Origin: an uncultured bacterium
GTDB taxonomy: Bacteria > Patescibacteriota > Minisyncoccia > Phycocordibacterales > GWA1-40-21
Reading direction: 5' to 3'
Length of the DNA: 64,000 bases
Assembly (NCBI GenBank): GCA_963840885.1
Contig: CAWJAN010000001.1
Coordinates: 9,669-73,668 of the forward strand
The notes below the pieces were generated by a model that had not been told where the DNA came from, did no database searches, and saw nothing but the letters and a program-made list of their open reading frames with translations. Shown piece after piece: positions 20,902 through 41,417 of this stretch (position 1 is its first letter; the number at the start of each line of letters is the position of its first letter). Position numbers and translations under genes: made by a program.

Positions 20902-21795
20902 ATGCCGTGCTCGGCTCGCGCTCCCCCGTCTCCCACGGTGTCGTCGTCGCCGCTCGCGCTCCTCGTCGTCCTCGCGGTCTCCTCCGCGGTCTCGGTGACC
21001 GCGCAGCGGCTGGCCGACGGCCAGGCGCCGAAGTTCACGGTGGATCCGTTCTGGCCGAAGCCGCTGCCCAACCGCTGGCTGCTCGGCCAGGTGGCGGGCG
21101 TGGCGGTCGACCCGCTCGACCACGTGTGGATCGTGCAGCGGCCGCGCACCCTGACCGACGACGAGAAGGGCGCCACGCTCAACCCGCCGCGCAACGAGTG
21201 CTGCGTGCCCGCGCCGCCGGTGATGGAGTTCGACAGCGAGGGCAACCTGCTCCAGGCCTGGGGCGGGCCCGGGCCGGGCTACGACTGGCCGGCCAACGAG
21301 CACGGCATCTTCGTGGACCCGTCCGGCAACGTGTGGCTGGCCGGCAACGGGGAGAAGGACGACCAGATCCTCAAGTTCAGCCGCGACGGCCGGTTCCTGA
21401 TGCAGATCGGCAAGCCGGGCTCGAGCGGCGGCGACGCCGACACCGCGCAACCTCAATCGCCCCGCCGACGTGCGGGTGGACGCGGCGGCCAACGAGCTGT
21501 ACGTGGCGGACGGCTACGCCAACCACCGGGTCATCGTGTTCGACGCGACCACCGGCGCCTACAAGCGCCACTGGGGCGCCAACGGCCGGCCCCCGGGCGA
21601 CGCGAGCGTGAAGCAGTTCCGGAACCCGGTGCACTGCGTGCGCATCGCGACCGACGGGCTCGTCTACGTCTGCGACCGGATGAACAACCGGATCCAGGTC
21701 TTCAAGAAGGACGGCACCTTCGTGAGCGAGTTCGCCCTGGCGATCTCGACGACCGGCAACGGATCGGTGTGGGACCTCGACTTCTCCCGCGACCC
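20902..21795 (+). CDS. secreted NHL-repeat beta-propeller protein, 3' truncated at the composition junction
   Basis: Signal peptide plus repeated VVFDATTG / LVYVCDRMNNRIQVF motifs. The frame runs into low-GC sequence at about 21,795 with no natural stop. Confidence 0.5.
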
Positions 21796-22596
21796 ATATT
21801 TATCGTCCTTATCGGTATTGTAAAATTCCACCCAGCCGCATCTTGCTCCCGGCCAAGGAAATTCTTTTGAGATTCCGCGCATCGCAAGCCCTGGAACGCC
21901 GTCTATCACTTGTGCAAGCTTCCTGTGCTCAACGCCGCCGTAATAAAGATTGGAATATATCTCATCCGATATGACGAATAGGTCGAATTCCCTTGCAATA
22001 TCGACGATTTGTTTCATTATTTCTATCGGAAATACGGCGCCTGTGGGATTGTCCGGATTTACGATTAAGACGGCACATATTTCAGGATGAGCTTTTATTT
22101 TTTCACGCAAATCTTTAAGGTCCGGATACCAATGGTTTTCCGGATCAAGCTTATATGTCATATGCGGCGAGCCTGCATGGGCGGCTTCGGCTGAGGAGTG
22201 AGTGGAATATGCTGGATTCGGCCCTATTACGCGCGAGCCGGGATTGAGATAATTATAAATGGTGGCGATAGCATCGCCAAGGCCGTTGAAGAATAAGATA
22301 TCGTCCGGTTTTATCTGTGCTCCGCCTTCCAGGTTTCTTTCGTATGCTATGTATTCTCTCGTATCCAGAAGTCCTTTTGTAGGCGAATAGCCGAAGCAGG
22401 AATTATCTTTCAAAACAGTGTCGGAAACTATTTTCTTTATCCAGGCCGGCACTTCCTCGCCTTTTGCCACCGGATCGCCGATATTTTCCCAGACGATTTT
22501 AACGCCGGTCTTTTCTATCTTGTTTGCAACATCCACTATCTCGCGGATTTCATAAACGAGCTCATCAGCTCCTGGATGTACTATATTATTTCGCAT
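21796..22596 (-). CDS. class I/II (PLP-dependent) aminotransferase, 3' truncated at the composition junction
   Basis: MRNNIVHPGADEL..NPDNPTGAVF..GLAMRGISKEFPWPGARCGWVEF; only about 265 aa of an expected 390 precede the junction. Confidence 0.7.
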
Positions 22597-29804: not shown

Positions 29805-30209
29805 CTATAGAGTCAAAAGAATTGCTGAAGCGATAGCGCAAACGAAGCCGATTCCCTGTTTGAGAGTTAGGCCGTCAATATACGCTTTATACACGGCAGA
29901 GATGGCGATCTCCAAGACAAATGTGATAACAATCAAAAGTCCCACATTTGCCGCTGTCGATTTTGCAAGCATTCCATTAAAAAGCAGTGTTCCAACCCCT
30001 CCGAGAATGCTCGCAATCACCACGAACCACCAGTTCACGCCGGCTGTGTTTCCGATATTACCAATGGTAAATGGATACACAACCACAAGCATAATGCCGA
30101 TGAAGAAAAGCGACGACGCATTGCCGCCAAGGCCGCTTTTGTTCATGATAAGCGGCCAAATACCCCAACAGATGCCAGTCAAAACGGATTTCACTATCAG
30201 TTCTTGCAT
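29805..30209 (-). CDS. small EamA/DMT-like 4-TM membrane protein
   Basis: 134 aa, four TM helices. Confidence 0.45.
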   Translation of the reverse strand: MQELIVKSVLTGICWGIWPLIMNKSGLGGNASSLFFIGIMLVVVYPFTIGNIGNTAGVNWWFVVIASILGGVGTLLFNGMLAKSTAANVGLLIVITFVLEIAISAVYKAYIDGLTLKQGIGFVCAIASAILLTL

Positions 30210-30413
30210 GGACGCCTCGTTTCTAGCTAGGAATGACCAACCTGGAATTTAGATTACAATGAATAAGAGGAATGTCAATTTGATTTTTTATTTCTTTTAA
30301 AACAGATGCGATTTTTTCAGATATTTGCATATTATGTTTCATTCTACAGATATTTTTATATCTTTGTAAGATTAAATTTTTCGACGCGACTCGTGTGCTC
30401 GAACTACGCACGT

Positions 30414-30444
30414 GCTAGCTGGCAGTCTAGGACGATGTTGGAAC
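30414..30444. repeat. tRNA-Gln 3'-end-like repeat, copy R1
   Basis: GCTAGCTGGCAGTCTAGGACGATGTTGGAAC; immediately 3' of the minus-strand DUF305 gene. Confidence 0.6.
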
Positions 30445-30453
30445 AATCATCAC

Positions 30454-30900
30454 TCAATTTAAAGATTGAAGTTTGGTTTTCATCCAATCAATCTGTGATT
30501 GTTGGCTTGAAATTATATCTTTGCATAACTGTTGAATTTCAGTGTCTTGTAGGTTGGCTTTATTGCACATTAGTATCGCAGCACCATGATGAGATATCAT
30601 TGATTTTAGAAATTCTTTATCCGAGATACCAGTCTGGTTGCGTATGAAAATAAAAGACACAACAAGAAAAAAAATACTTATAATCATAGTAATAATTTTT
30701 GTTTTATTTTCGTACATTGATCCCATCACTGCTATTTCAATTAGTACCATAGCAGATGTCATGGCGAGTACCATGTAGACTTGATCCAGGTTTATGTAGA
30801 TATTACCAAAAGTATCAACCATCATGTACATAAGTACAAACATCACGCAGAATGAAAGTACAATCATTATGAAAAATTTAGATAATTTTATATGTTCCAT
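30454..30900 (-). CDS. DUF305-family membrane protein
   Basis: MISHHGAAILMC motif of DUF305 plus N-terminal TM helices. Confidence 0.55.
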   Translation of the reverse strand: MEHIKLSKFFIMIVLSFCVMFVLMYMMVDTFGNIYINLDQVYMVLAMTSAMVLIEIAVMGSMYENKTKIITMIISIFFLVVSFIFIRNQTGISDKEFLKSMISHHGAAILMCNKANLQDTEIQQLCKDIISSQQSQIDWMKTKLQSLN

Positions 30901-30933
30901 ACAACTAAATTATATCAGACTTAAAAAGTATTT

Positions 30934-30960
30934 GCTGGCCGTCTGGGACGATGTTGGAAC
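30934..30960. repeat. tRNA-Gln 3'-end-like repeat, copy R2
   Basis: GCTGGCCGTCTGGGACGATGTTGGAAC, 3' of the DUF2726 gene. Confidence 0.6.
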
Positions 30961-30964
30961 TAAA

Positions 30965-31468
30965 TTAAGACTTTAAATAAGGTAATATATTACTTACTGA
31001 TTCATAAAAATTATGACCAACCTTAATAGTTATTAACGGTAAGTCAGCTTCTTTAAATATCTGTTGTTTTTCTTTATCCATTGTTATTCTATCTAATCTG
31101 TTGTGAGAACTACCATTTAATTCAATTGCAACTATCGGTTTAAAATTTTGATCACAAATTACAAAATCTATATGTCTAGGTAATATTTTATTTCTTCTTT
31201 TATAGAAACCGGGACCATTAACAGCATCTATAACATCAGCTATACGCATATTAGGAAAAATATAATAATCTTGTGGTAGTTGTTTCCTTAATTCAAAAAA
31301 TAAAGCTGATTCAGTATGATTCATAATCTTGAATCTTTTCTTGTATCCGACGATAGATTTTTTGTCTATGACAGGAGCATGATGTCCTACAATTCTAATA
31401 TTTTCATAAAATTTTAGAATTAATATGACAACAAAAATTGCAATAATATACCAAATTAAGAAAATCAT
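30965..31468 (-). CDS. DUF2726-family protein (PD-(D/E)xK nuclease-like) with N-terminal TM
   Basis: IDFVICDQNFKPIVAIELNGSSH core typical of DUF2726. Confidence 0.55.
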   Translation of the reverse strand: MIFLIWYIIAIFVVILILKFYENIRIVGHHAPVIDKKSIVGYKKRFKIMNHTESALFFELRKQLPQDYYIFPNMRIADVIDAVNGPGFYKRRNKILPRHIDFVICDQNFKPIVAIELNGSSHNRLDRITMDKEKQQIFKEADLPLITIKVGHNFYESVSNILPYLKS

Positions 31469-31500
31469 ATTTAAAAGTATATCAAATTATAAATCTATTT

Positions 31501-31570
31501 GCTGGGGCTCGTGAGAGACGTTAGAACTGCGGTACTAGAATCCAATCACGATTACACTCTAAATATACCC
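31501..31570. repeat. tRNA-Gln 3'-end-like repeat, long form, copy R3
   Basis: GCTGGGGCTCGTGAGAGACGTTAGAACTGCGGTACTAGAATCCAATCACGATTACACTCTAAATATACC; near-identical to R4 and about 80% identical to R5 over the shared part. Confidence 0.7.
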
Positions 31571-31652
31571 GAGTTTTTTAAAAAAGAAAAATCGGACGAT
31601 ATAACCGATCTAAAATTCGTTGTATAAGGCTTTGCCACGATGAAAAAACTCG

Positions 31653-31982
31653 CTAGGAAACTTTGCTTTTAAGTTCTTTTATATAAGTTTTAAAAATCCA
31701 CTTTTCAAGGCGATTGTTTAAAAAATCATCATCAATACCATCAGCTGATATAGCTAATGCCCATTCTATTCCGAGTTTTTCATTCTTAAAAAATACAGCC
31801 TTACTCATCTTTTGGTCTTCTTTTTTAATTGGTTTACTATCTTTATCAAAAGTCATTTTAGATTCTTTTACATATACTTCCAAATCAGGGTCAATATCGT
31901 TAATAAGGGACTCGGCTTTCTCTTTTGTCTTCTCAAACCAATCTATTTCAGCAATATTTTCTTTTATGTTTAGTGTTTCCAT
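31653..31982 (-). CDS. hypothetical protein
   Basis: 109 aa acidic ORF, no recognised domain. Confidence 0.4.
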   Translation of the reverse strand: METLNIKENIAEIDWFEKTKEKAESLINDIDPDLEVYVKESKMTFDKDSKPIKKEDQKMSKAVFFKNEKLGIEWALAISADGIDDDFLNNRLEKWIFKTYIKELKSKVS

Positions 31983-32049
31983 ATTTTATATATTAACACA
32001 AATATATAATTTCTGACTTGACTTGAGCGTCGCAAGTGCTGGCTGGGGC

Positions 32050-32122
32050 TCGTGAGAGACGTTAGAACTGCGGTACTAAATTCCGATCAAGATTACACCC
32101 TAAATATACCTGAATTCCTAGG
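32050..32122. repeat. tRNA-Gln 3'-end-like repeat, long form, copy R4
   Basis: GCTGGCTGGGGCTCGTGAGAGACGTTAGAACTGCGGTACTAAATTCCGATCAAGATTACACCCTAAATATACC. Confidence 0.7.
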
Positions 32123-32257
32123 AGAGGAAAAGTCAGGTGATGACTATGTATCATCTCTTTTTCCGTTTTTACAACAAGGGTGAGAAATATGTTGTCCTAC
32201 AACTCGGTATTTTTTGTATGATTTAATAAACAGTGCCAAAAATGAAGTTTCCCATTT

Positions 32258-34120
32258 TTATTTAATTATGCTTTTAAAATATTTTTCGGTTTCCTTATCT
32301 ATAAAATAAACATAGCACCCTTTCATTCCGCGAGTCATAAGCGTGCGATAGGTATTTTTTATAATTTTATCCGATTTCTCAGAGGCAAACTTTGGATTAT
32401 TCTTAAAATCTGCTTTATATCCCTTTAATGAGGCATCTGTCTTAGCGCGTTTACTCGGATCAGTAATAACTTTTCCGTCTCTGACAACAAAATCCGGACC
32501 AACTATCACACCTATATAGTCAACCTCAAGACCCTGACAGGTATGTATGCAACCGACTTCATTTACTGATTTTGGTGAGATAATCCAAACGTTTCCATCT
32601 TCTGATAGGTTCCATTTCATTTCAAAGTCATATTCTGGAATGACAATATCTTTGAGTGATTTATTCTTCTTACTTATCCAGTTCCAACAGTAACCTGCGA
32701 CAAGGCGAGCCTTATTATTTATTTCGTTTTTATTGAAAATTAAATCTCTGAGTTCATTAGGTGAATCAACAATTTTAAAATCATAGTTAATACCTTCAAG
32801 TGTTTTGTTTGCCGTTTCTTTTATTTGTAATGAATTATCAAGCCATGAAAGATAACCATCTGATCCATTACATCTAAATTGCGATTCTAATTTTAAAAGA
32901 TGAGTTTTTGCGCCAATTTTTATTGCCCACTTTTCTATTTCTTCTTTTTTCCCTATATCGTGCCATGTGACTTTTTGATCTTCATCAATAAAAAATACCG
33001 AACATTTTGAAGCCTCTATTATTTCTTTAATCTGATTTTCTCCAAGATTTTTAAACATACCAGACTTTTCATTTAATCTATGAGCTTCATCAACAAGAAG
33101 ACAATCAAAAGTGTCCATATTACAGCTAATATAAGAGCCGGAACCGGTAAACATATTTGAAATTTGTGTTTTTTTAAGCGTTCCAGTTAGTTTACTCTCG
33201 AAAACTGCCCTCGGTGCAGCATTCTTTGTTACATATTGAGTATTCAAACCAAGCTTTGTTATTGCTACAAGCAAGTTAACGGCGACAACTGATTTACCTG
33301 TTCCTGGACCTCCATCAACCATGAGAACATTTTTATTATCACAAGTGGATTTTTTAGTTAGAGCTAAAGCAGTTTCATAAACAATTTTTTGGTCATCAAT
33401 CATGATAAATTCTTGATTGCCTTTTATCATTGATGCCATACTATCTGCAAGATTTTTTGATGGACGTATATCTCCATTATCAATTCTATATAATGTATTC
33501 TTTTTCTCTCCATGTTTAATAAACTTCGTAATAAAATCTTGAAGTTTTTTTTTGTCTCCTTTACAGAAAGCTGGAGCCTTTCCTAGGTAATCATTATAAA
33601 AGGAATCCAGAATTACAGCATTATCTAAGTAATTATGTAGGTAAGCACATGGTTCAAGTCCAATATTCTCTTCGTAGACAACAGCATTAAAACCATAAAG
33701 TAATGTTGAATATGACCATGCTTGATACGATGGATGTAATTCCTCGCTTGGACCACTTGCAAAGTGAGTAATAACCATTGCATCCTTATCTGTTTTTTGA
33801 ATATCAGTCCACTGTTTGAGTTCAATAATGACTACTTTTTCCTTACCATTTTCATCTTCCCCTGTAATAACAAAATCGATTCTGTTTTTGGTTCTAGGTA
33901 TTGAGTATTCGATAGCAACACCAGAATCATTCGGTATTTTGTCTGACTGCATCACTTTATACATTGCATCACCCAAAGAGTTCTTCCATGAGTTATATTC
34001 ACTACTTCCTACCTTAATATCAATATTGAGTTTTTCCTTTACTTTAGATTTTACGATGTCCTCAATCCCATTGGAAGCATCATTCAAAAATCCAAGCTTG
34101 GTGGATTGATAGACTATCAT
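32258..34120 (-). CDS. DUF2075-family protein: N-terminal PD-(D/E)xK nuclease-like domain fused to a Schlafen/SF1-like P-loop ATPase
   Basis: N-terminal IDFVITGEDENGKEKVVIIELKQW (D..ELK). Walker A VDGGPGTGKSVVAVNL. Walker B LLVDEAHRL. Start overlaps the MazG stop by 4 nt. Confidence 0.7.
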   Translation of the reverse strand: MIVYQSTKLGFLNDASNGIEDIVKSKVKEKLNIDIKVGSSEYNSWKNSLGDAMYKVMQSDKIPNDSGVAIEYSIPRTKNRIDFVITGEDENGKEKVVIIELKQWTDIQKTDKDAMVITHFASGPSEELHPSYQAWSYSTLLYGFNAVVYEENIGLEPCAYLHNYLDNAVILDSFYNDYLGKAPAFCKGDKKKLQDFITKFIKHGEKKNTLYRIDNGDIRPSKNLADSMASMIKGNQEFIMIDDQKIVYETALALTKKSTCDNKNVLMVDGGPGTGKSVVAVNLLVAITKLGLNTQYVTKNAAPRAVFESKLTGTLKKTQISNMFTGSGSYISCNMDTFDCLLVDEAHRLNEKSGMFKNLGENQIKEIIEASKCSVFFIDEDQKVTWHDIGKKEEIEKWAIKIGAKTHLLKLESQFRCNGSDGYLSWLDNSLQIKETANKTLEGINYDFKIVDSPNELRDLIFNKNEINNKARLVAGYCWNWISKKNKSLKDIVIPEYDFEMKWNLSEDGNVWIISPKSVNEVGCIHTCQGLEVDYIGVIVGPDFVVRDGKVITDPSKRAKTDASLKGYKADFKNNPKFASEKSDKIIKNTYRTLMTRGMKGCYVYFIDKETEKYFKSIIK

Positions 34121-34122
34121 TT

Positions 34123-34470
34123 TTACAATTGGTTATATTTTTTGTGATTACCTTTAGCTTTTTCAACTGAATATTTTTGTTCATTCTTTTCCATCTTATC
34201 ATCTAAAGATTTTACAAGATCAATATCTAAATCCTTACTCATGAGAAGTATCCAGTATAAAGTATCAGCTAATTCATCAGCGATATCAGTCTTATTGGTT
34301 TTTATATATTCTTCTATCTCCTTAGTATTTTTCCATTGGAAATGTTCCATCACCTCAGTAGCTTCAAGTACAAGTGAAATTGCTAAATCTTTAGGGTTAT
34401 GAAATTGTTTCCAATCTCGTGCATCTCTAAAATCTAATATTCTTTTTGAGAGTCTTTCAATATCTGACAT
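34123..34470 (-). CDS. MazG-like all-alpha nucleoside triphosphate pyrophosphohydrolase
   Basis: 115 aa with EExxE-type metal-binding motifs (LEATEVMEHF, ADELADTLYWIL). Confidence 0.6.
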   Translation of the reverse strand: MSDIERLSKRILDFRDARDWKQFHNPKDLAISLVLEATEVMEHFQWKNTKEIEEYIKTNKTDIADELADTLYWILLMSKDLDIDLVKSLDDKMEKNEQKYSVEKAKGNHKKYNQL

Positions 34471-34479
34471 TATTTTATT

Positions 34480-34950
34480 TTAAATTTTATTTTTTAATAT
34501 AAAGTTTTTTAACCATTCAGCATCTTCATTCATAATAAGTAATGAACCAGACGGTCTATTTTCTGAATTTCCATTATTTATTCGTATTTGGCCAGGAGAC
34601 GCCGTCCATATATTTATTCTACTCACTCCAAAAATCATAGCAATAATACCCTTTTTTATAATTATATTTTGGATACTACTAAAAGGAATGGATTTTGATT
34701 TTTTAATTAAAATCCCTGAATTTATTGTTAGTGTTTTTTCAGACACAATAAAATTAATACACGCATAATCTAAAAGTAACCAAATGGCAACCAAAATCAT
34801 AAATCTACCAAGAGAATTAAAAGTATCTGGCATATCGCTAACAAGACCACCAATAAATAAGGTAATTATAAAGAGTATTATAAAAAGCCAAGTTATTCCA
34901 TATAATCTTGCTGACCAAGGTAATTTTATTTTTTGATTAAGTGTAATCAT
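34480..34950 (-). CDS. membrane protein with bacterial PH domain (bPH_2, YdbS/YdbT-like)
   Basis: Two N-terminal TM helices then a PH-like region; ends 10 nt upstream of the MazG gene. Confidence 0.5.
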   Translation of the reverse strand: MITLNQKIKLPWSARLYGITWLFIILFIITLFIGGLVSDMPDTFNSLGRFMILVAIWLLLDYACINFIVSEKTLTINSGILIKKSKSIPFSSIQNIIIKKGIIAMIFGVSRINIWTASPGQIRINNGNSENRPSGSLLIMNEDAEWLKNFILKNKI

Positions 34951-35159
34951 TTGGTTTTTAATCAGATTAATTTTAATTATACTATAAAATAAATATTTAT
35001 CGTACTCAGGAACAATCTTAAAATGTTACTTAGTATGTTTTGGTCATTTGTTGTCTCTTGTGAGTCACTGCATATAAATTAAAATAGCTTTAAGAAGACC
35101 CATATAACACGAATGTCATAAAGCTATTAACGTAAACGGTATCTAGTCTGAAAATCCAA

Positions 35160-35210
35160 GGTTAGAACCGCAGTACTGGAATCTAACCATGATTACACTC
35201 TAGATATGCC
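35160..35210. repeat. tRNA-Gln 3'-end-like repeat, copy R5 (3' portion of the long form)
   Basis: GGTTAGAACCGCAGTACTGGAATCTAACCATGATTACACTCTAGATATGCC. Confidence 0.6.
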
Positions 35211-35252
35211 TAAGTTTATGAAAGAGATGCAATAATCTGATAGTGAAGAAAA

Positions 35253-35918
35253 TTATTTTTTTCTTGGGCTATAAAGTTTTTCTTCCGCAAGTTTAAGTGT
35301 TTCTTCACCTAATCTCTTGAGACTTTCAGGTAAGTTTTTCAAAACTTTATGAAGATCATCCAGATAATAATTTGGCATACCACTTTTTTTAACATACTCT
35401 CTTATTTCTGGAAGTGTTTCTTCAGCACCAAAACCTGCTTTTATATCCATTTCTAATTTTTCGATCATTCTTGAAATTTCTCCAACTTGTCCCTTATCTC
35501 TAAATTTTTCAATCTCGAAGTCTATAATTGTTCGTTTAATATCAAAAATTTCATTTTCAAATTTAGTCTGAATAGACTTAATTTGAATAGCAATAGAATC
35601 AGAACTTTTCTTTATTTGATTTTGAAAAGAATTTTTTGCATCAACCAATTCTTTTTCAAGAATACCTAACTTAGAATTTTTTACTTCTTTTCTTATTCTA
35701 AAAATAATTACTGTAATGATAATGAGACAAATTAATATAAACAATTCAAAAGGATACTTACAAACTAAAATGAATAATCTAGATAACTTATCAAACAAGT
35801 ATGAATATATTTGCCACTTTAATAAATAGTCAATTAAAGTCATCAAAGCAACCAGTGAAGTTATTATTGTAATAATCTTTCCTATTAGGGTTTTTGTCCA
35901 AAAATATATTTTTTGCAT
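35253..35918 (-). CDS. hypothetical membrane-anchored coiled-coil protein
   Basis: N-terminal TM helices then a long coiled-coil segment. Confidence 0.4.
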   Translation of the reverse strand: MQKIYFWTKTLIGKIITIITSLVALMTLIDYLLKWQIYSYLFDKLSRLFILVCKYPFELFILICLIIITVIIFRIRKEVKNSKLGILEKELVDAKNSFQNQIKKSSDSIAIQIKSIQTKFENEIFDIKRTIIDFEIEKFRDKGQVGEISRMIEKLEMDIKAGFGAEETLPEIREYVKKSGMPNYYLDDLHKVLKNLPESLKRLGEETLKLAEEKLYSPRKK

Positions 35919-35968
35919 TTTTTAAAAATTAATAATAAATCAAAGCAAGCTGAACTACACTTCTGTTA

Positions 35969-36120
35969 GCTGGGACTTATAACGGACGTTAGAACTATGA
36001 TGCTTAAATCTGAACCTGAAAATCTTTCGTTAGAACCAACCGATAATGTAGGATTGAAGCCACAAAATAGTAATTTTGAAACTCTAAATCCTACTTTGCT
36101 GGCCGACTCGAGTTAGAACC
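35969..36120. repeat. cluster of three partial tRNA-Gln 3'-end-like repeats (R6a-c)
   Basis: GCTGGGACTTATAACGGACGTTAGAAC (35969-35995); CGTTAGAACC (36028-36037); GCTGGCCGACTCGAGTTAGAACC (36098-36120). R6c is 17/23 identical to the tRNA-Gln 3' end. Confidence 0.6.
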
Positions 36121-36405
36121 ACCACTGGTCAAGCACCCCAATGTCATTCTTAGCTTTTTAAGTGTATCAGAACGACGCGACTCGAGCGACTTAAAAAGTG
36201 ACAAAAGTGACAATTTTATCGCTTGTAATATTCACTACCTCTTGCGAGACTTTCAAACGTTTCTTACAACACCATAATAAAGTTAGAGAAACTAGATAGA
36301 CCTGCAAATCCAACCGTAGAAACACTCACGCTTCTTGCGAAGGCACTGGAAACCTCTATCCCAGCATTGCTCTCTCATGAGGGATAGCTGACTTTCCTGA
36401 TTATT

Positions 36406-37368
36406 TTACTTGCCCCGCAGTAGAGTTAGGAAGAACGTCAAGATACCTGAAGCGAAAAAGGCAAAAGCGAAATTGTATTGGATTATGGTAACAATCAGGG
36501 ACAGCAACCAAAGAGCTACAGACACAACGACGAATAGCCAAACCCACTGAAGAACGAAAGCACTGAATTTGATACCGAAAGAAACTTTATTCTTTACTTC
36601 CTTCTTCGTAGATGCGGGTTTTTTGTTTAGAAATACCTCAATATGTTCTAGGATTTCTTTACTTGATCTAAATTCACCATTAGAAATACCAACATACTCT
36701 TTTGATTTCTCATCAAACAATTTCTCTTGGATTTTGTTTACATGTTCTATGGCTTTTTTGCTTTCTTCATCTGACATAGCGTCTTGTTTTGATTTTGGAT
36801 ACCAAATTTCTCGTCCTGTTGCATATTCATCAGTAATTTTTAATCCGGTAGTATCTGATGCGAGGATTTTCTCAATTTTAAGTGTTGCAGTCTTTATTTT
36901 TTCTGCGAACTGTCTCAGATGACGGCGATAATCATCCGGAGAAATTATTTCAGGGTGTTTAGAAAGTATATACATAGATACAGGCAACCAGCCCTCGTGC
37001 CATTCAACTTCTTTTTTAAGACCATCGATAAACCCTTTGGTCATCGAGCTCATAGAAGCCACTTCATTTCTGTCAGTAAGAATATCGGTCTCCAAAACAA
37101 CACCATCTTTCACACAGTATCGTTCTGGTGGCTCATCTACTCGTTCAGTTAGTCGAGTTTCCACTTTCACTGGATCAGTTTTAATGCGATATTCAAATTT
37201 TTCGGTACGGTAGTAGACATCATCCTTCAAACGCATTCTTGATTGATAAGTTTTTGAATCCGGAAACACATCAATTGTAAAATCTGCGTATTCGTCGTCA
37301 AGTGAAAGTGTATTATCGCCGTCTTCTTCAAAGATTTCTATTTTCATATTAAAAATATAATACCACAA
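36406..37368 (-). CDS. hypothetical protein with C-terminal TM helices
   Basis: 320 aa; soluble N-terminal region, two C-terminal TM helices; immediately downstream of the HEPN-motif gene. Confidence 0.45.
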   Translation of the reverse strand: MWYYIFNMKIEIFEEDGDNTLSLDDEYADFTIDVFPDSKTYQSRMRLKDDVYYRTEKFEYRIKTDPVKVETRLTERVDEPPERYCVKDGVVLETDILTDRNEVASMSSMTKGFIDGLKKEVEWHEGWLPVSMYILSKHPEIISPDDYRRHLRQFAEKIKTATLKIEKILASDTTGLKITDEYATGREIWYPKSKQDAMSDEESKKAIEHVNKIQEKLFDEKSKEYVGISNGEFRSSKEILEHIEVFLNKKPASTKKEVKNKVSFGIKFSAFVLQWVWLFVVVSVALWLLSLIVTIIQYNFAFAFFASGILTFFLTLLRGK

Positions 37369-37374
37369 AACTAG

Positions 37375-38142
37375 TTAAATTTCTGCTCCGTAAGCTTGGT
37401 CACAAATACCAACAACAAAATTAAAAAACTTCTGTGATAATTCCAAGAGTTTAGTATTTATCGGAGAATTTTTATTACGTGGATCATCTTGTACCATAAT
37501 CGCATAATTTAAATCTATCACTACTTTATCATTGATGTTATTCGGAGCTTCTACAATTTTAACCACACCTTCATGTTCAATAACATTTCTGTAATCAAAA
37601 AGAAGTTTGTATATGGTATCGTTATTTGAATTTTCAATTATACTTTTAAGTTCGGTGTTTTTCTTTTCAAGATCTTTAAGCTTTTTACAAAGTTCCCCCC
37701 AATCTGGTCTTTTAATTCCAAGACTATATATTTCATTTATCTCATTTGCCAACCAATCAAGAGAACTCATAAGAGAGATTGTTAGAGTATAAAAATATTC
37801 GTGTATTCTAATAGTTTCAATTGTAAATATCTCACCGGTATTTCCAGTTGATGGATCTGGATATAATGTAGAAGTTGGAACTCCCGATAGACCTATTGTG
37901 GTTATTGGTAATGTATATTGTCCAGTTTTTCTTGCCACACTAAGTTGTTGCTCTTTTAAATTAGAAAGTGCATCTTGAGCAAAGAGTAAACGCATAGTTA
38001 AAACATTTATTCCATATTTTTTAAGTGGGTTGTTGCCTATATTTTCAAGTTTGTTCCACAAAAACTCTTGGTTATTAAAAAATGGTGCTAGATCTGCCAA
38101 ACCACGATTATCTCTATAAGTGTTGAAGAAATATCCTTTCAT
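37375..38142 (-). CDS. hypothetical protein with a HEPN-like Rx4H motif (Abi-like)
   Basis: 255 aa; C-terminal YRNVIEHEG fits the HEPN Rx4-6H signature; no other domain recognised. Confidence 0.4.
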   Translation of the reverse strand: MKGYFFNTYRDNRGLADLAPFFNNQEFLWNKLENIGNNPLKKYGINVLTMRLLFAQDALSNLKEQQLSVARKTGQYTLPITTIGLSGVPTSTLYPDPSTGNTGEIFTIETIRIHEYFYTLTISLMSSLDWLANEINEIYSLGIKRPDWGELCKKLKDLEKKNTELKSIIENSNNDTIYKLLFDYRNVIEHEGVVKIVEAPNNINDKVVIDLNYAIMVQDDPRNKNSPINTKLLELSQKFFNFVVGICDQAYGAEI

Positions 38143-38298
38143 ATTTAATGTCTAACATAAAAACCTCTTATTCACAATTAATCTGCCATTGGATAGCAGA
38201 AGTTCGAATCCCACCTCCTATTATTTTATGGTGTGGTGTAATATGTCAAATATTCAGACTTGAGGGTCTATTTTAATACTTGTATTTAAATACAACTT

Positions 38299-38321
38299 GC
38301 TGTGCGGCTCGAGTTAGAACC
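38299..38321. repeat. tRNA-Gln 3'-end-like repeat, copy R7
   Basis: GCTGTGCGGCTCGAGTTAGAACC; 20/23 identical to R6c. Confidence 0.6.
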
Positions 38322-38394
38322 TTGCTCGGACAAGCCCCACAAGGTGATTTTGAATGATTTGAGTATATGAAATCAACGTGACTAGAGGTACTAG

Positions 38395-38601
38395 TTAAGC
38401 CTTACGCCAATGATCTCGTTTACCAATCTTTGTTATTCGAACACGCTCAATAAGAAGTTCTTGTGGGTCGAGCTTTTGCGCTTTCTCGATCGCCTTTTCT
38501 TGTGTAGTAGCAGTTGCAATAGGTTTTTTTACCTTAGGCGCCTTTACTCCATAATTACCATTTGGTAATCGTTCTACAAATAATTTTTTAGGTTTGTTCA
38601 T
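38395..38601 (-). CDS. DUF2188-family small protein
   Basis: VERLPNGNYGVKAP..TTQEKAIEKAQKL..ERVRITKIGKRDHW matches the DUF2188 pattern. Confidence 0.5.
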   Translation of the reverse strand: MNKPKKLFVERLPNGNYGVKAPKVKKPIATATTQEKAIEKAQKLDPQELLIERVRITKIGKRDHWRKA

Positions 38602-38615
38602 CTTTTACATTCTAT

Positions 38616-38638
38616 CACAAAAGTGACAAAAGTGACAG
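38616..38638 (-). promoter_or_regulatory. direct repeat GTGACAAAAGTGACA in the 5' region of the DUF2188 gene (operator-like)
   Basis: CACAAAAGTGACAAAAGTGACAG lies 15-37 nt upstream of the start codon; a second copy is at 36194-36213. Confidence 0.35.
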
Positions 38639-38641
38639 TTT

Positions 38642-39784
38642 TTAATCCTCTATATTTATATCTGGAATGTACCCGTAATTATGTAGAGCATTTAGTATTA
38701 CTGAGTACAAAGCTTCTTGAGGTACTTGGAAAAGTGGAAATAGTGGTAGCGCTTGAAGTGTTTCTGCATTACCAGCGTCTTTATCAGTTTGATAATGAAA
38801 CGAGAAATTAGTAAAATATACTGCATTATATGTTGATGGGTTTTCTGGTGTATTTGGTTCTTGTTTTTTTGCCGTATTTAAAATATCTTTTATCCATGTT
38901 TTTTGCTTAAAATCCTCAAAGTCTTCTTGCGGTGCATTTACATCAATAAAAATTATAAAGGGCATTTTCCCGCACTCGGTTTTCTTTAAAGCTTGATTAA
39001 ACAGACGTTGAATATCTCCCTTACGATTTTTTAAATTATCTACTTTACCTGGAGTATGCAGAACTCCAGCTCGATGTCTACTTTTTGCCTCAACAGCTAT
39101 TTCAGTACCTGTTTCCGTATGAATTGCAATAAACTCAGAATGTTTTTCTGTATTATCATCTATCCATTTTATGGTGAATCCTAATCTTGCAATTATTGCG
39201 GCTACCATAATTTCATATCTTGCACCTTGATATTGACGTGGTATACGTAAACGTTTAATAAGCGAATCAGGGAGGTTTGAACAATTTCTTAGGGTCGCTA
39301 TATCAAATGCAAGTGTCAACATAGATTTAACCCAACCATTTGGCGGGTATGCAAATATCCCATCCTTTGATGGTTCAACTATTTTTATTAGTTCTTTTTT
39401 CCACTGATCAGCATGAGAAAAACATTTAAAGATATGGTGCCTGTCATCTTCTGATAATAATTTCTGTTTTGAAAACCAATCAGACCCAAGTGTATCCCTA
39501 AGGGCGATCTGGACAAAATCATGGAAAGTTTGATTCAGTTCTGGACTTGAATATAGTTGATTGCCCAAGGCCCAGATTTTTTTATCCTTAAATATTATGG
39601 GTGTTACATAATTCATATAGATACCTCTACTTTGTAATTCCTCCTTTTTCTCTTTAGTTTTTTTGAAAAAATCCAATGCTTCTTGGGGAATTTTGTCTTG
39701 ATCCATATGACATTTTTTATATTTTTTCCCACTATTACATGGGCAGTGATCATTTCTGCCTATCTTCATACTATTTATAAACAC
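38642..39784 (-). CDS. SEC-C metal-binding motif protein with a possible PD-(D/E)xK-like core
   Basis: N-terminal NDHCPCNSGKKYKKCH SEC-C motif; internal EFIAIHTETGTEIAVEAKSR segment. Confidence 0.55.
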   Translation of the reverse strand: MFINSMKIGRNDHCPCNSGKKYKKCHMDQDKIPQEALDFFKKTKEKKEELQSRGIYMNYVTPIIFKDKKIWALGNQLYSSPELNQTFHDFVQIALRDTLGSDWFSKQKLLSEDDRHHIFKCFSHADQWKKELIKIVEPSKDGIFAYPPNGWVKSMLTLAFDIATLRNCSNLPDSLIKRLRIPRQYQGARYEIMVAAIIARLGFTIKWIDDNTEKHSEFIAIHTETGTEIAVEAKSRHRAGVLHTPGKVDNLKNRKGDIQRLFNQALKKTECGKMPFIIFIDVNAPQEDFEDFKQKTWIKDILNTAKKQEPNTPENPSTYNAVYFTNFSFHYQTDKDAGNAETLQALPLFPLFQVPQEALYSVILNALHNYGYIPDINIED

Positions 39785-40124
39785 ATAGATTCATAATGAT
39801 AGGATTTACGACTAAATATATTTCCCAAATAAATAAACAAACAAAAACAAGAAACATTGTTGAGATCACCACCTCTTCTTTTTTCTCATTTTTCCCTTCA
39901 AGTTTCGATTGATATTTTTTTAGTTCTTTATATAAAATATTAAAAAAATTGAATATGATATAGAGTATACCAATAGTTACCAAACTCTTAAGTGCTGTGA
40001 TGCCAGAGATATCCTTAATTGGTAGTGCACAATATGTTTGTGATAGGAATATTACCAAAGATAAACCAGCGGCAACCTCGAATAAAGATTTCATAACCGA
40101 AAATATCAGGAGCATTACTAGCAT
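39771..40124 (-). CDS. small hypothetical membrane protein
   Basis: 117 aa, three TM helices; overlaps the SEC-C gene start by 14 nt and the alternative ORF 40015..40281. Confidence 0.35.
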   Translation of the reverse strand: MLVMLLIFSVMKSLFEVAAGLSLVIFLSQTYCALPIKDISGITALKSLVTIGILYIIFNFFNILYKELKKYQSKLEGKNEKKEEVVISTMFLVFVCLFIWEIYLVVNPIIMNLCVYK

Positions 40125-40319
40125 TATGTTTGATCCCCATTTGGGTTTCTAACCAGTGACCATCTTTACCATCATGGCTCTGGTTTGAGCCTGAAGTATC
40201 CGAGCTTTTACCTCTGACATTTTTATTAAAGAGATCAACAATTTTCTTGATGATCTGCTGACGACTAAGATTTACTGACATGAATAAATACTAGCAAAAA
40301 TAAGAGAATATTGCGACCC

Positions 40320-40823
40320 CTACTTTATATTATCAAGAACAATTTTAGCTTCTGCCAATAGTGATTTTGTAACACTTAAATTCCAAGCTCTCATCGTGGA
40401 GTGCCATCTTTTGAATTTAAGAAATTGTTCCCAAGTTAATTCAATAATTCTTTTAGGTTTATAGTCTTTAAAGATTTGAACAATAATGACATATTCAAAC
40501 TTTTTGTCTGGAATAATATAATCGTCTTTTTCGCCAACACCGTAAAAAACGCCAGTGGTACTACTCGGTTCAGAAATTGTCTTAATACTGTATCTTTCTC
40601 CTTTTCTACTTAAAGCATCTACATTCTGAGTACCTTCGGGAGCAGCTTGAAGATTAGGCATTCCACTTATTGAATTATAAGTTTCAACAGCCAAAAATTC
40701 CCCTCGTTCACCAACGATGTTATTTGTTCTAACTAGGTTACGTTTTTTTAATTCTTGCTGAATATCAGCATATCCTAGCCAAAGCTCTTCATTGTTTAAT
40801 TCATCAGTATTTACTTTTTTCAT
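40320..40823 (-). CDS. hypothetical protein (possible nuclease-like fold)
   Basis: 167 aa; GERGEFLAVETY segment; first gene next to tRNA-Gln; ORF 40015..40281 might be a frameshifted continuation. Confidence 0.4.
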   Translation of the reverse strand: MKKVNTDELNNEELWLGYADIQQELKKRNLVRTNNIVGERGEFLAVETYNSISGMPNLQAAPEGTQNVDALSRKGERYSIKTISEPSSTTGVFYGVGEKDDYIIPDKKFEYVIIVQIFKDYKPKRIIELTWEQFLKFKRWHSTMRAWNLSVTKSLLAEAKIVLDNIK

Positions 40824-40850
40824 AGCTATCTTTGAGCTAGCTCAAACTTG

Positions 40851-40921
40851 CTGGGGGACTTGGATTCGAACCAAGATAACAGCCTTCAAAGGGCCGTGTC
40901 CTACCATTAGACGATCCCCCA
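40851..40921 (-). tRNA. tRNA-Gln (anticodon UUG)
   Basis: Reverse complement folds as a cloverleaf: 7-bp acceptor UGGGGGA/UCCCCCA with U1:A72, T-arm CTTGG-TTCGAAT-CCAAG, anticodon loop CTTTGAA. Confidence 0.75.
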
Positions 40922-40929
40922 ATACTTTG

Positions 40930-40960
40930 GGTTTCGTGTCCTGCCATTAGCCTGCCCCCT
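40930..40960 (-). other. truncated tRNA 5'-half fragment (pseudo-tRNA) immediately upstream of tRNA-Gln
   Basis: Reverse complement GGGGGCAGGCTAATGGCAGGACACGAAACCC parallels the first ~31 nt of the intact tRNA. Confidence 0.5.
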
Positions 40961-41027
40961 AGTGCGGGCAAGCGGCCAGGGACATCACCCAATATAAAAA
41001 CAGCTTAAGAATACTTGAAAAACCTGG

Positions 41028-41417
41028 TTAATTCAAGCCGAAATCAATTAGTTTTGATTTGATATCCGCCAGCTCATTATATGCCGCTGCTTCCCCGCTC
41101 TCCATTTCGGAAATGGCATCATCTATCCTTTTTCTGACGTCATAAAATTTTTCTTTATAATCCAATTTGTTTTTATCGGTTTCCTCCAAATCCCTCATCT
41201 CGGTCAATTCTTTCAATTCATCTTTTGTAATATCAGCTTTATTCAACAGCTCCACAAGCTCATCTTTACTGTAGTTTATGCGGACACCCGGATGTATTCT
41301 TATCAATGCTTCCGTGACAGCTTTTGAGCCACCATAGGACATCAAATCTCCGGATGTTGTCCCTTCCTTTTTGTTTTCTTTGGTTTCCGCGCCTTTAAAC
41401 ATTTCAAATATTCCCAT
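41028..41417 (-). CDS. hypothetical protein
   Basis: 129 aa acidic, coiled-coil-prone ORF. Confidence 0.4.
   Translation of the reverse strand: MGIFEMFKGAETKENKKEGTTSGDLMSYGGSKAVTEALIRIHPGVRINYSKDELVELLNKADITKDELKELTEMRDLEETDKNKLDYKEKFYDVRKRIDDAISEMESGEAAAYNELADIKSKLIDFGLN

Follow-up and report, generated by a model that had tools for sequence, protein, structure and literature searches.

A 10.6-kb defence-gene island at the tRNA-Gln of an ultra-small bacterium: a probable composite array of elements inserted by serine recombinases

Results and discussion

The island, its cargo and the adjoining tRNA-Gln

The window, a contiguous stretch of 64,000 nucleotides from the genome of an ultra-small bacterium of the Patescibacteria/CPR, contains an island of 10.6 kb that lies next to a tRNA-Gln gene and combines defence genes with nine repeats resembling recombination sites. 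The intact tRNA-Gln(ttg) gene (40850..40921, minus strand; Rfam score 62 bits) is presumably the target of integration and the attB/attL side of the island; from the start of its T-loop, GTTCGAAT, to the end of CAGC is 22 nt. As claimed in an earlier sequence-only reading of this DNA, the credible ORFs between 30454 and 40823 are all on the minus strand, which is that of the tRNA. The GC content of the island (27-34%) is lower than that of its flanks (~40-44%), and we count this in favour of a composite array.

At the end distal to the tRNA, the cargo, all coded on the minus strand, begins with a membrane protein bearing a partial DUF305 domain (30454..30900), a DUF2726 protein (30965..31468) and a 109-residue hypothetical protein (31653..31982), which is the sole gene between repeats R4 and R3. 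These are followed by a segment coding for a bPH_2 membrane protein, a MazG-like protein and a DUF2075/SLFN-type helicase (32258..34950), the latter two constituting a widely found two-gene module, and by a 221-residue hypothetical protein (35253..35918). Further along are a weakly matching HEPN_Cthe2314-like protein with a 320-residue membrane-anchored hypothetical protein (36406..38142), and a tRNA-proximal segment (38395..40823) with a type II methyl-directed restriction enzyme, an N-terminal fragment of a LlaMI-type restriction enzyme, a small membrane ORF, a SEC-C protein and a DUF2188 protein.

A degenerate 5' half of a tRNA-Gln, evident in the sequence and extending to the anticodon loop (40925..40961, minus strand), adjoins the intact gene. 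It is situated 46 nt past a conserved TTTTTCAAGTATTCT block, and the real tRNA of the relative L108 begins 43 nt past the same block. The presence of this truncated half had been noted correctly and taken as a sign of repeated recombination. Recombination at the extreme 3' end does not predict a 5' half; we counted this pseudo-tRNA against the composite array.

The same relative provides a comparison with a locus that lacks the island, as had been suggested on the first reading. Its tRNA-Gln is identical to that of the island at 72/72 positions and its def gene is 82% identical; a core gene lies 36 nt downstream of the tRNA, with none of the island genes, although the synteny near the tRNA is rearranged, making this an imperfect "empty site". 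We count the absence of the island at an identical tRNA-Gln in favour of serial integration.

Architecture of the repeats

The pattern GTTCYAAC-N5-20-CCAGC has seven matches against 0.04 expected, which fall on six distinct sites (30418, 30934, 31501, 32042, 35969 and 36098; R4 is matched twice), exclusively on the minus strand and within the island. All the repeats are intergenic and on the strand of the tRNA, bearing out the proposal that real repeats lie 3' of the gene groups. Their non-random distribution, confined to one strand and to intergenic positions, was counted for the composite array. Five of them (R1-R4 and R6a) include a 27-nt site composed of an element right-end arm, made up of GTTCYAAC and a further 14 nt, followed by CCAGC(A), the tail of tRNA-Gln. 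R1 (30418..30444) and R2 (30934..30960) consist of this site, starting respectively 4 nt past the stop codon of the DUF305-like gene and 5 nt past that of the DUF2726 gene. R3 (31501..31570) and R4 (32042..32110) combine it with a left arm, a, and have y-type and x-type tails, respectively; R6a (35969..35995) has the form GTTCTAAC-N14-CCAGC with an x-type tail.

The remaining copies depart from this plan. R5 (35141..35211) joins the 45-nt left arm of R3 and R4 and the GTTCTAAC core (35161-35168) to another right arm (CTTGGATTTTCAG), and R6b (36008..36036) has the core (36029-36036) followed by the GAAAGATTTTCAGG arm that it has in common with R5. Although both have the core, R5 and R6b are without the CCAGC tail, which we counted against the composite array. 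R6c (36098..36145; GTTCTAAC-N9-CCAGCAAAG) and R7 (38299..38345; GTTCTAAC-N10-CAGCAAGTT), the latter with a left arm like that of R6c and, as the tail of its stretch 38299-38320, CACAGC, show the 22-nt spacing of the tRNA. This union of an element-type motif with tRNA-type spacing was likewise counted against it. All nine copies are on the minus strand; a tRNA-like 3' fragment, GTTCGAATCCCACCTCC, lies on the opposite strand (38182..38218, plus).

Comparison of the copies reveals a mosaic. Over 100 nt, R3 and R4 have 82% identity, the first reading having described a near-identical unit of about 70 bp for R3, R4 and R5; R5 shares only their left 45 nt, with a left-arm score of 25 (99.9th percentile of the null, 16) and a right-arm score of 2. 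Conversely, the right arm of R3, but not its left arm, is common to R6c and R7. The homology between copies ends exactly at the GTTCTAAC core, as expected of recombination junctions, and this too was counted for the composite array.

The likeness of the repeats to the tRNA had been read as that of att sites resembling the acceptor and T-arm. The 17/23 identity of R6c to the tRNA is as reported, and when 42 kb were scanned without bias for the 3' 31 nt of the tRNA, R6c and R7 alone stood out individually (R7 as the third-best match other than the tRNA itself), whereas R1-R5 did not; a profile built from the repeats gives the tRNA end no better than E=7. The further view that the GTTCYAAC core of R1-R4 and R6a is a degenerate copy of the T-loop has to be abandoned, as it corresponds to an element arm positioned 5 bp further from CCAGC than the T-loop. 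Most of the repeats are an element arm joined to the last ~6 nt of tRNA-Gln, and not decayed copies of the tRNA.

Related elements and the geometry of the sites

The closest homologues of the island DUF2726 protein (P0242 and P0248) are coded on two other patescibacterial contigs, L118 and L119, the L118 gene being 76% identical to that of the island in amino acids and 77% in nucleotides. Both reside in elements of ~6 kb that code for a protein with Resolvase, Recombinase and Zn_ribbon domains, which aligns with phage serine integrases across 95% of its length, and for a Phage_CRI protein (Rep). The elements are inserted at the 3' end of a tRNA, namely tRNA-Gln in L118, where the recombinase gene overlaps the tRNA 3' end, and tRNA-Gly in L119. 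At its far end, the L118 element reads GTTCCAACTTCATACCACAAGGCCAGCAAAG, with the form GTTCCAAC-N14-CCAGCAA; L119 has the same 22-nt arm at that end, but its tail, ACCCGCAC, is that of tRNA-Gly. When 42 kb were scanned for the L118 31-mer, R2 (25/31) and R1 (21/31) came out on top against a background of at most 19, a level that R3 (19/31) equals. We count these elements, with their DUF2726 homologues, large serine recombinase (LSR) and matching far end, in favour of the composite array; that only two were found, with DUF2726 as the only cargo in common with the island, was counted against it.

Measured from GTTCnAAy to the end of CAGC, the element arms give 27 nt and the tRNAs 22 nt, both for the window and L118 and, by counting on the sequences, for L119. 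Large serine integrases recognize a 7-9 bp zinc-ribbon-domain (ZD) motif in the half-sites of attP and attB, which lies 5 bp nearer the centre in attB (PMC3783163). The match between the two shifts was counted for the composite array, and by this geometry the 5-bp displacement of GTTCnAAy appears to be the published signature that distinguishes attP from attB. The likeness to the model for the A118/LI integrase of Listeria (Rutherford et al. 2013, PMC3783163) lies in this shift between site types; unlike in that model, the motif is assigned here from sequence geometry alone and the right-hand half-sites are barely symmetric. Dyad symmetry in the reconstructed L118 attP is weak (12/32), which we counted against the composite array. 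On either side of the centre, at a distance of 16-23 nt, a GTTC-like motif is present in R1, R4 and R6a, as in attP (GTTCGAGC in the right flank of R1), with a statistically weak dyad signal.

Origin of the array

We consider it probable that the island is a composite array formed by repeated LSR-mediated integration at the very 3' terminus of tRNA-Gln. Successive insertions there would have brought in small integrative elements, or what remained of them, with GTTCnAAy serving as the motif recognized by the recombinase zinc-ribbon domain, its attB version being supplied by the T-loop and its attP version by a mimic in the element. Each later integration would displace older units away from the tRNA, and the recombinase and replication modules would subsequently be lost, while defence-type cargo would be kept, each unit closed by its own site. 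The sites would thus be recombination junctions of the attR or attP type, and neither RNA elements nor integron attC. The early suggestion of serial integration leaving integrase-less att scars is essentially supported by the homologous element end at the tRNA-Gln of another genome and by the relative without the island. Integration into attL is, to our knowledge, not a property of canonical LSRs; tandem build-up would therefore require relaxed behaviour as in the SCC and ssrA islands, and we counted this against the composite array. Moreover, neither a serine recombinase nor a Rep, whole or as a remnant, is present in the island or across the 42 kb of this genome within the window, and this absence of pseudogene traces argues against the composite array because the random decay of nine elements should leave some.

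The same absence of recombinase and Rep debris favours a rather unlikely alternative, namely that single-gene cassettes, each a gene with one attP-like site and never encoding a recombinase, were captured and released at tRNA-Gln in trans by an LSR encoded elsewhere, e.g., in an L118-type element, as in an SCC-like or integron-like gene-capture platform. It would account for three consecutive intact single-gene modules (516, 567 and 541 bp) between near-identical sites (R1/R2, 93%; R3/R4, 100% over core and arm), for the attP-like motifs on both sides of R1, R4 and R6a, and for the variation of the gene beside the P arm (ClpP in L118 versus HNH in L119) while the remainder of the element is common to both. 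However, the same module was not found elsewhere in a second genome, these sites do not accompany the MazG-helicase pair as it spreads, the dyad signal has little statistical strength, and we know of no LSR that recombines a pair of attR- or attP-like sites lying in direct repeat.

Local segmental duplication, by which replication slippage or unequal homologous recombination copied a gene-end sequence with only a secondary resemblance to the element and tRNA, is improbable: the nearest copies are indeed the most alike (R1/R2, R3/R4, and R6a, R6b and R6c inside 150 nt), but the intervening genes are mutually unrelated, the core is an exact homology boundary, and in an independent genome a recombinase element at tRNA-Gln ends in the same 27-nt architecture. 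We give still less credence to tRNA-like 3' processing signals, terminators or mRNA regulatory sites: the repeats are on the gene strand, two lie just past stop codons, and R7 folds into a minihelix like the acceptor/T-arm (z = -2.0), but there are no Rfam matches even at E ≤ 10, the folds differ (z-scores -2.7 to +1.6) without conserved structure, terminator-like T tracts are absent after the repeats, and the two arms of the repeats form a mosaic. The other early suggestion, an integron-like array of an IntI-type tyrosine integrase acting on folded attC-like sites from a tRNA 3' end, has in its favour a one-way array of small cassettes with a repeat after each, but is already close to refuted, since the recombinase search proposed with it returned none of the tyrosine type in 42 kb of this genome, the proposed folding of the repeats gave nothing better than shuffled controls and no common hairpin, the core GTTAGAAC departs from the GTTRRRY consensus, and the recombinase of the related elements is of the serine type.

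Comparison with known systems

The composite array is a tidy real case of a known process, the stacking of mobile elements at one tRNA, and not a new gene-cassette system. The initial claim that it lacked precedent was too strong: recombinase-less tandem units at the 3' ends of tRNA, tmRNA or rlmH genes are well described (PMC3146451, PMC3900703, PMC5704250), and we count these in favour of the composite array. With integrons, the island shares a one-way array of small, mostly single-gene units with a recombination-site-like repeat after each; unlike them, it is without IntI, attI and the attC hairpin, and its relatives use a serine recombinase. In streptococcal CIME/ICE accretion at tRNA or fda genes, an element integrates and decays to an integrase-less one bounded by attL and attR, and the next integrates beside it (PMC5704250). 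The model of integration, decay and renewed integration is alike, but those systems mostly use tyrosine integrases and long identity segments copied from the tRNA, whereas here the repeated part of the tRNA amounts to only ~6 nt, the remainder of each repeat being element arm.

The composite array resembles both the Dehalococcoides ssrA islands and the staphylococcal SCC composite islands. In the latter, the 3' end of a single conserved gene receives cassettes through the action of Ccr serine recombinases; the stacked elements and remnants are marked by as many as 6-8 repeats of the integration site, recombinase genes are missing from some units, and the cargo includes restriction-modification and resistance genes (PMC3900703). 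Stacked site repeats, recombinase-less units and restriction-type cargo are thus shared with SCC and psi-SCC, although the target there is the protein-coding rlmH/orfX, SCC units span tens of kb, and trans-excision of psi-SCC by Ccr is proven experimentally, whereas the present island is known from sequence. [quoted passage not shown] 2011, PMC3146451). They differ in their target (tmRNA, as against tRNA-Gln in a patescibacterial host) and size (roughly 10-30 kb, as against units of 0.5-3 kb, none of which retains a recombinase), and it is the autonomous relatives of the present elements that carry a Phage_CRI rolling-circle Rep; the two systems have in common tandem low-GC units that follow a small RNA gene, an element motif and recombinase-less units.

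Composition and context of the tRNA-Gln island

The window joins two unrelated sequences, with a GC content of ~70% up to ~21.7 kb and of 36-44% thereafter; where the two meet (1-21700/21700-64000), an aminotransferase ORF (21664-22596) is truncated. The closest relatives of the MurB and peptide deformylase (def) proteins encoded in the second part are labelled Saccharibacteria, Paceibacterota or Patescibacteria, which assigns that part to a Patescibacteria/CPR genome. Within this 42-kb part, the island downstream of tRNA-Gln(ttg) (40850-40921, minus strand) has a GC content of 27-34% as against 40-44% in its flanks. As the sequence-only reading had claimed, all credible ORFs from 30454 to 40823 lie on the minus strand, like tRNA-Gln, and its gene annotations were likewise recovered: a partial DUF305, DUF2726, a DUF2075/SLFN helicase with a MazG-like protein, bPH_2, a weak HEPN, DUF2188 and SEC-C. 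A type II methyl-directed restriction enzyme adjoins tRNA-Gln (PADLOC, 2.5e-58) and is followed by the N-terminal ~48 residues of a LlaMI-type restriction enzyme. This fragment, beside the intact methyl-directed enzyme (40015-40281 and 40320-40823), suggests that a restriction-modification system has decayed immediately next to the tRNA, on its downstream side.

A relative free of the island is L108, in which the def product is 82% identical and tRNA-Gln is identical at 72/72 positions; there, the tRNA is followed after 36 nt by a core aminotransferase gene, and none of the island genes occurs in the 20 kb covered. The L108 neighborhood is, however, rearranged, making the comparison imperfect; hence, it supports, but does not prove, that the island was an addition. 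Among GTDB genomes, the best matches in a MurB-guided search for orthologous loci were only 65-68% identical and not syntenic, and in JGI metagenomes a 375-aa neighbor used as guide gave matches of at most 38% identity, with no tRNA-Gln synteny.

The genes for the MazG-like protein and the DUF2075/SLFN helicase (32258-34470) show 76-87% protein identity to hundreds of Patescibacteria homologs and are thus more conserved than peptide deformylase (<=82%). The DNA identity (79%) between the window and L111, an unrelated Patescibacteria contig, is confined to 34443-32268, which is exactly these two genes. This suggests a two-gene defense-type module that has recently spread horizontally. Most of its relatives display an extra C-terminal S24 (LexA-like) peptidase domain, which is absent here. 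As the three other contexts of the module (L111, L116 and L117) have no R-type repeats and no tRNA, it spreads by other routes.

Two further motifs were observed between the island genes. The direct-repeat motif AAAAGTGACAAAAGTGACA (minus strand TGTCACTTTTGTCACTTTT) occurs twice with 96% identity, at 38619-38642 and 36194-36217. The DUF2188 gene and a -10-like TGTGATAGAAT lie immediately downstream of one copy, and the other is orphaned within a 487-nt spacer without genes; the motif looks like an operator, the second copy of which has lost its gene. A GC-rich motif (CTCGAGTCGCGTCG/CGAGTCGAG/GCGTCGAAAA) sits right behind gene ends both in the island (~30375-30400, ~36170-36190) and in L111 (3368-3400, 4152-4175). 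A promoter and terminator scan gave counts no different from those in shuffled sequence.

The repeats are recombination junction-like mosaics

The short repeats noticed in the sequence-only reading proved to be non-random, intergenic and restricted to a single strand within the island. The pattern GTTCYAAC-N5-20-CCAGC has seven matches, as against 0.04 expected from shuffles, all of them on the minus strand, inside the island and within 10.5 kb downstream of tRNA-Gln. Once R7, with its CACAGC tail, and the tail-less R5 and R6b are added, there are nine sites in total (R1-R5, R6a-R6c and R7, with R1 the farthest from the tRNA). All nine are intergenic, and R1 and R2 start 4-5 nt past a stop codon. 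The tail, CCAGC(AA), is the terminus of tRNA-Gln. By the spacing between the G of GTTC and the final base of CAGC, the copies form two classes: R1, R2, R3, R4 and R6a with 27 nt, and R6c and R7 with 22 nt, as in tRNA-Gln itself.

The copies share homology in a mosaic pattern that is interrupted at the 8-nt core. R3, R4 and R5 have a common 45-nt left arm (scores 19-33; 99.9th percentile of the null 16), with the right arm of R5 unrelated to those of R3 and R4 (score 2). Right arms are related between R3, on the one hand, and R6c and R7, on the other (scores 11-12; 99.9th percentile of the null 10), with unrelated left arms. The tails beyond CCAGC are of two types, one shared by R1, R4 and R6a, and the other by R2, R3, R6c, R7 and the tRNA. 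A short unit with abrupt ends of homology to its left and right has the appearance of a recombination junction. The sole other assembly of the same population found, Logan ERR12036782, has identical genes on contigs of 9069 and 8830 nt, the ends of which fall at R3, at R4 and within the T-loop of tRNA-Gln; the breaks at R3 and R4 imply that the length and similarity of the repeats suffice to disrupt assembly from short reads.

Related serine recombinase elements at tRNA 3' ends

The closest homologs of the DUF2726 protein of the island (76% and 70% identity) are encoded in two groundwater contigs, L118 and L119, inside ~6-kb elements that also code for a large serine recombinase (LSR) and a Phage_CRI Rep. 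The recombinases combine Resolvase, Recombinase and Zn ribbon domains, align over 95% of their length to phage serine integrases, and match the TP901-1 integrase in the catalytic domain. At one end of the L118 element, tRNA-Gln(ctg) and the recombinase gene overlap at the 3' end of the tRNA, and the opposite end of the element is GTTCCAACTTCATACCACAAGGCCAGCAAAG. Its sister in L119, with 70-81% nucleotide identity to it, is situated at tRNA-Gly(ccc) and ends in the same TTGTTCCAACTTCATACCACAA arm, here joined to ACCCGCAC, the terminus of tRNA-Gly. The core common to the two element-chromosome junctions, attL and attR, is CCAGCA in L118 and ACCCGCAC in L119, and these ends define the repeat unit as an element arm plus the last 6-8 nt of the target tRNA.

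The repeats of the island share this architecture. When the 42 kb were scanned with a 31-mer from L118 (84,000 positions), R2 (25/31) and R1 (21/31) ranked first over a background maximum of 18-19, with R3 (19/31) tying the top background match, and in an ungapped alignment of R1-R4 and R6a with the L118 and L119 ends GTTC-AAC-TC stays in register. GTTC begins 27 nt before the end of CAGC in L118 attR, as in R1-R4 and R6a, versus 22 nt in both tRNA-Gln genes; in L119, measured to the end of CGCAC, the spacing is 27 nt in attR and 22 nt in tRNA-Gly. Thus, GTTCnAAy lies at 27 nt in element arms and at 22 nt in tRNAs in three independent cases: the window, L118 and L119. The architecture of the unit, its homology to the end of a recombinase-encoding element and this 5-bp rule can be read directly from the sequences.

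At attR in L118 (11771-11833), the displaced native flank is perfectly complementary to the copy of the tRNA 3' end (CCAGCAAAGCA...TGCTTTGCTGG), and in L119 (12010-12047) the two likewise form a perfect hairpin (ACCCGCACAAAAAA...TTTTTTGTGCGGGT); these hairpins are probably the original tRNA terminators. One more degenerate tRNA-Gln 3' fragment at ~11940-11975 of L118 indicates that scars accumulate there too.

L154, with a more distant DUF2726 homolog, has no element and no motif. In IMG/VR, relatives of the L118/L119 recombinase were limited to one distant match, a degenerate 27-mer found 18 single matches, which is the chance expectation, and neither the R6c/R7 pattern nor the L118 arm had any match. 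All 33 matches of the R1/R2 arm 20-mer come from a single conserved coding region in high-GC phages and were rejected as coincidence. The tRNA-Gln 3' 23-mer retrieved phage tRNA clusters and one high-GC contig, L112, with ~100-nt direct repeats at 1-160 and 7940-8120 flanking ~8 kb; these contain a tRNA-Gln 3' half, and genes for a VapE-type primase and a small terminase are adjacent. L112 is a satellite-like tandem at a tRNA-Gln, unrelated to the island.

A proposed mechanism: mimicry of the tRNA T-loop

Large serine integrases recognize a 7-9-bp zinc-ribbon-domain motif at positions 16-24 of the half-sites of attP, the site of the element, and the same motif is 5 bp nearer the center in the half-sites of attB, the chromosomal target (Rutherford et al., PMC3783163). 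We infer that the recombinase would read the universal T-loop of the tRNA as the attB motif, with the element carrying a mimic of the T-loop 5 bp further out as the attP motif, and that crossover would take place inside CCAGCA. R1 shows dyad symmetry at 14/32 positions, with GTTCCAAC against GCTCGAAC in register, and the attP reconstructed for L118 (P arm, CCAGCA and P' arm) at 12/32, which is near chance; R1, R4 and R6a have a GTTC-like motif 16-23 nt right of the center, the dyad signal being statistically weak. As the T-loop motif is universal, one recombinase family could retarget between tRNAs, as the Gln and Gly insertions show; if the T-loop reading is right, it would explain this hopping.

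Serial integrations at the tRNA would stack units, so that each internal junction would have an element arm to its left and, to its right, either the left end of the next unit (attP-like) or the old chromosomal flank (attR). The sequence-only reading had likewise proposed serial integration, which is essentially supported by the element-arm/tRNA-tail architecture shared with L118 and L119, with the correction that the repeats cannot be independent decayed copies of the T-arm. Its claim that integrases are lacking stands: Pfam searches of the island and of the larger ORFs in the remaining 32 kb of this genome detected no tyrosine or serine recombinase, and tblastn with the L118/L119 recombinase and Rep (E <= 1) recovered no trace of either in the 42 kb, the island included, despite the nine sites. 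A cognate recombinase is present only at the related loci L118 and L119; the units of the island would have lost their recombinase modules. Four sites do not fit this scheme: R6c and R7 combine an element-type core with tRNA-type spacing, and R5 and R6b have no tail.

The lack of any recombinase remnant, together with three successive modules of 516-567 bp, each an intact single gene, with nearly identical sites, keeps alive a different reading, namely that recombinase-less cassettes are moved in trans. In its strongest form, which we regard as unlikely, the array would be a working gene-capture platform rather than a graveyard, in which single defense genes, each with one attP-like site bearing a T-loop-mimicking arm, are inserted at and released from tRNA-Gln by an LSR supplied in trans from sibling elements. 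Were it true, it would represent a serine-recombinase counterpart of the integron in ultra-small CPR genomes.

The sequence-only reading had taken all the repeats for degenerate copies of the tRNA 3' end. When the last 31 nt of tRNA-Gln were scanned against both strands of the 42 kb, R6c and R7 indeed stood out and R1-R5 did not; an opposite-strand fragment at 38182-38218 was also among the best matches after the tRNAs. The latter (plus strand, GTTCGAATCCCACCTCC) is a tRNA-like 3' fragment in opposite orientation, located between R7 and the HEPN-like gene. A profile of the repeats scored the tRNA end at a non-significant E=7, whereupon the reading of all repeats as decayed tRNA copies was dropped. 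Moreover, core position 5 is T or C and position 8 is C in 9/9 copies, where the tRNA has G and T; hence the copies are closer to one another than to the tRNA, and an origin as independent decayed T-arm copies is ruled out. A degenerate 5' half of tRNA-Gln is present at 40925-40961, directly upstream of the intact gene, where the tRNA begins in L108. It had been regarded as fitting repeated recombination, but recombination at the extreme 3' end does not predict a 5' pseudo-half; its position hints that an earlier event either introduced the present copy of the tRNA or displaced it. When this pseudo-half was joined to R7 or R6c, ARAGORN called no tRNA, and joining it to the true 3' half as a control gave no call either.

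The other proposal of the sequence-only reading, an integron-like cassette array, fails on both integrase type and site structure. The scanned ORFs of 21.6-64 kb include no Phage_integrase-type protein (IntI), and, by direct inspection, GTTAGAAC and GTTGGAAC misfit the GTTRRRY box. Single-strand DNA folds of the nine sites (z from -2.7 to +1.6) gave unrelated structures without a common hairpin, attC-like and bulged or otherwise, and for R3/R4/R5 alifold gave a simple consensus hairpin, weakly supported by covariation. Without an IntI tyrosine recombinase, attC-type folds or GTTRRRY boxes, membership among the integrons was rejected. A tRNA-like RNA element was also rejected, as the repeats matched no RNA family in Rfam, tRNA-like or other (gathering threshold and E <= 10), a tRNA covariance search of 30200-41100 (E <= 10) found the real tRNA-Gln only, and no cloverleaf or minihelix is conserved.

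Significance and relationship to known systems

Mobile elements and defense islands of the Patescibacteria/CPR are poorly described, and the island together with L118 and L119 defines a family of ~6-kb serine-recombinase/rolling-circle-Rep elements that insert at tRNA 3' ends. If the T-loop reading is right, the 27- versus 22-nt spacing offers a simple rule by which to detect these elements, and the scars they leave, in metagenomic data. The unusually small recombinase-less units also raise the question of whether single-gene defense cassettes are shuffled in reduced genomes.

The island is a real and well-defined feature in a member of a little-studied phylum. Its mechanism belongs to a known type, to which T-loop mimicry by a serine recombinase would be a neat and testable addition. 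Like tandem or composite islands at the 3' ends of tRNA, tmRNA or rlmH genes, it has direct repeats of the target end in target orientation, all downstream of the target, and consists of unrelated modules of foreign composition that are absent at the L108 target, the neighborhood there being rearranged. The closest match is the ssrA-GI of Dehalococcoides (PMC3146451). There, low-GC islands stand in tandem, a repeat of the 3' end delimits every one of them, and a conserved motif of the element lies immediately upstream of the repeats; the serine recombinase gene overlaps attL, and some units have no integration module. The composite SCC islands of staphylococci (PMC3900703), in which integration-site repeats number up to eight and psi-SCC units lack ccr, follow the same logic, for which the accretion of CIMEs in streptococci (PMC5704250) provides the general model.
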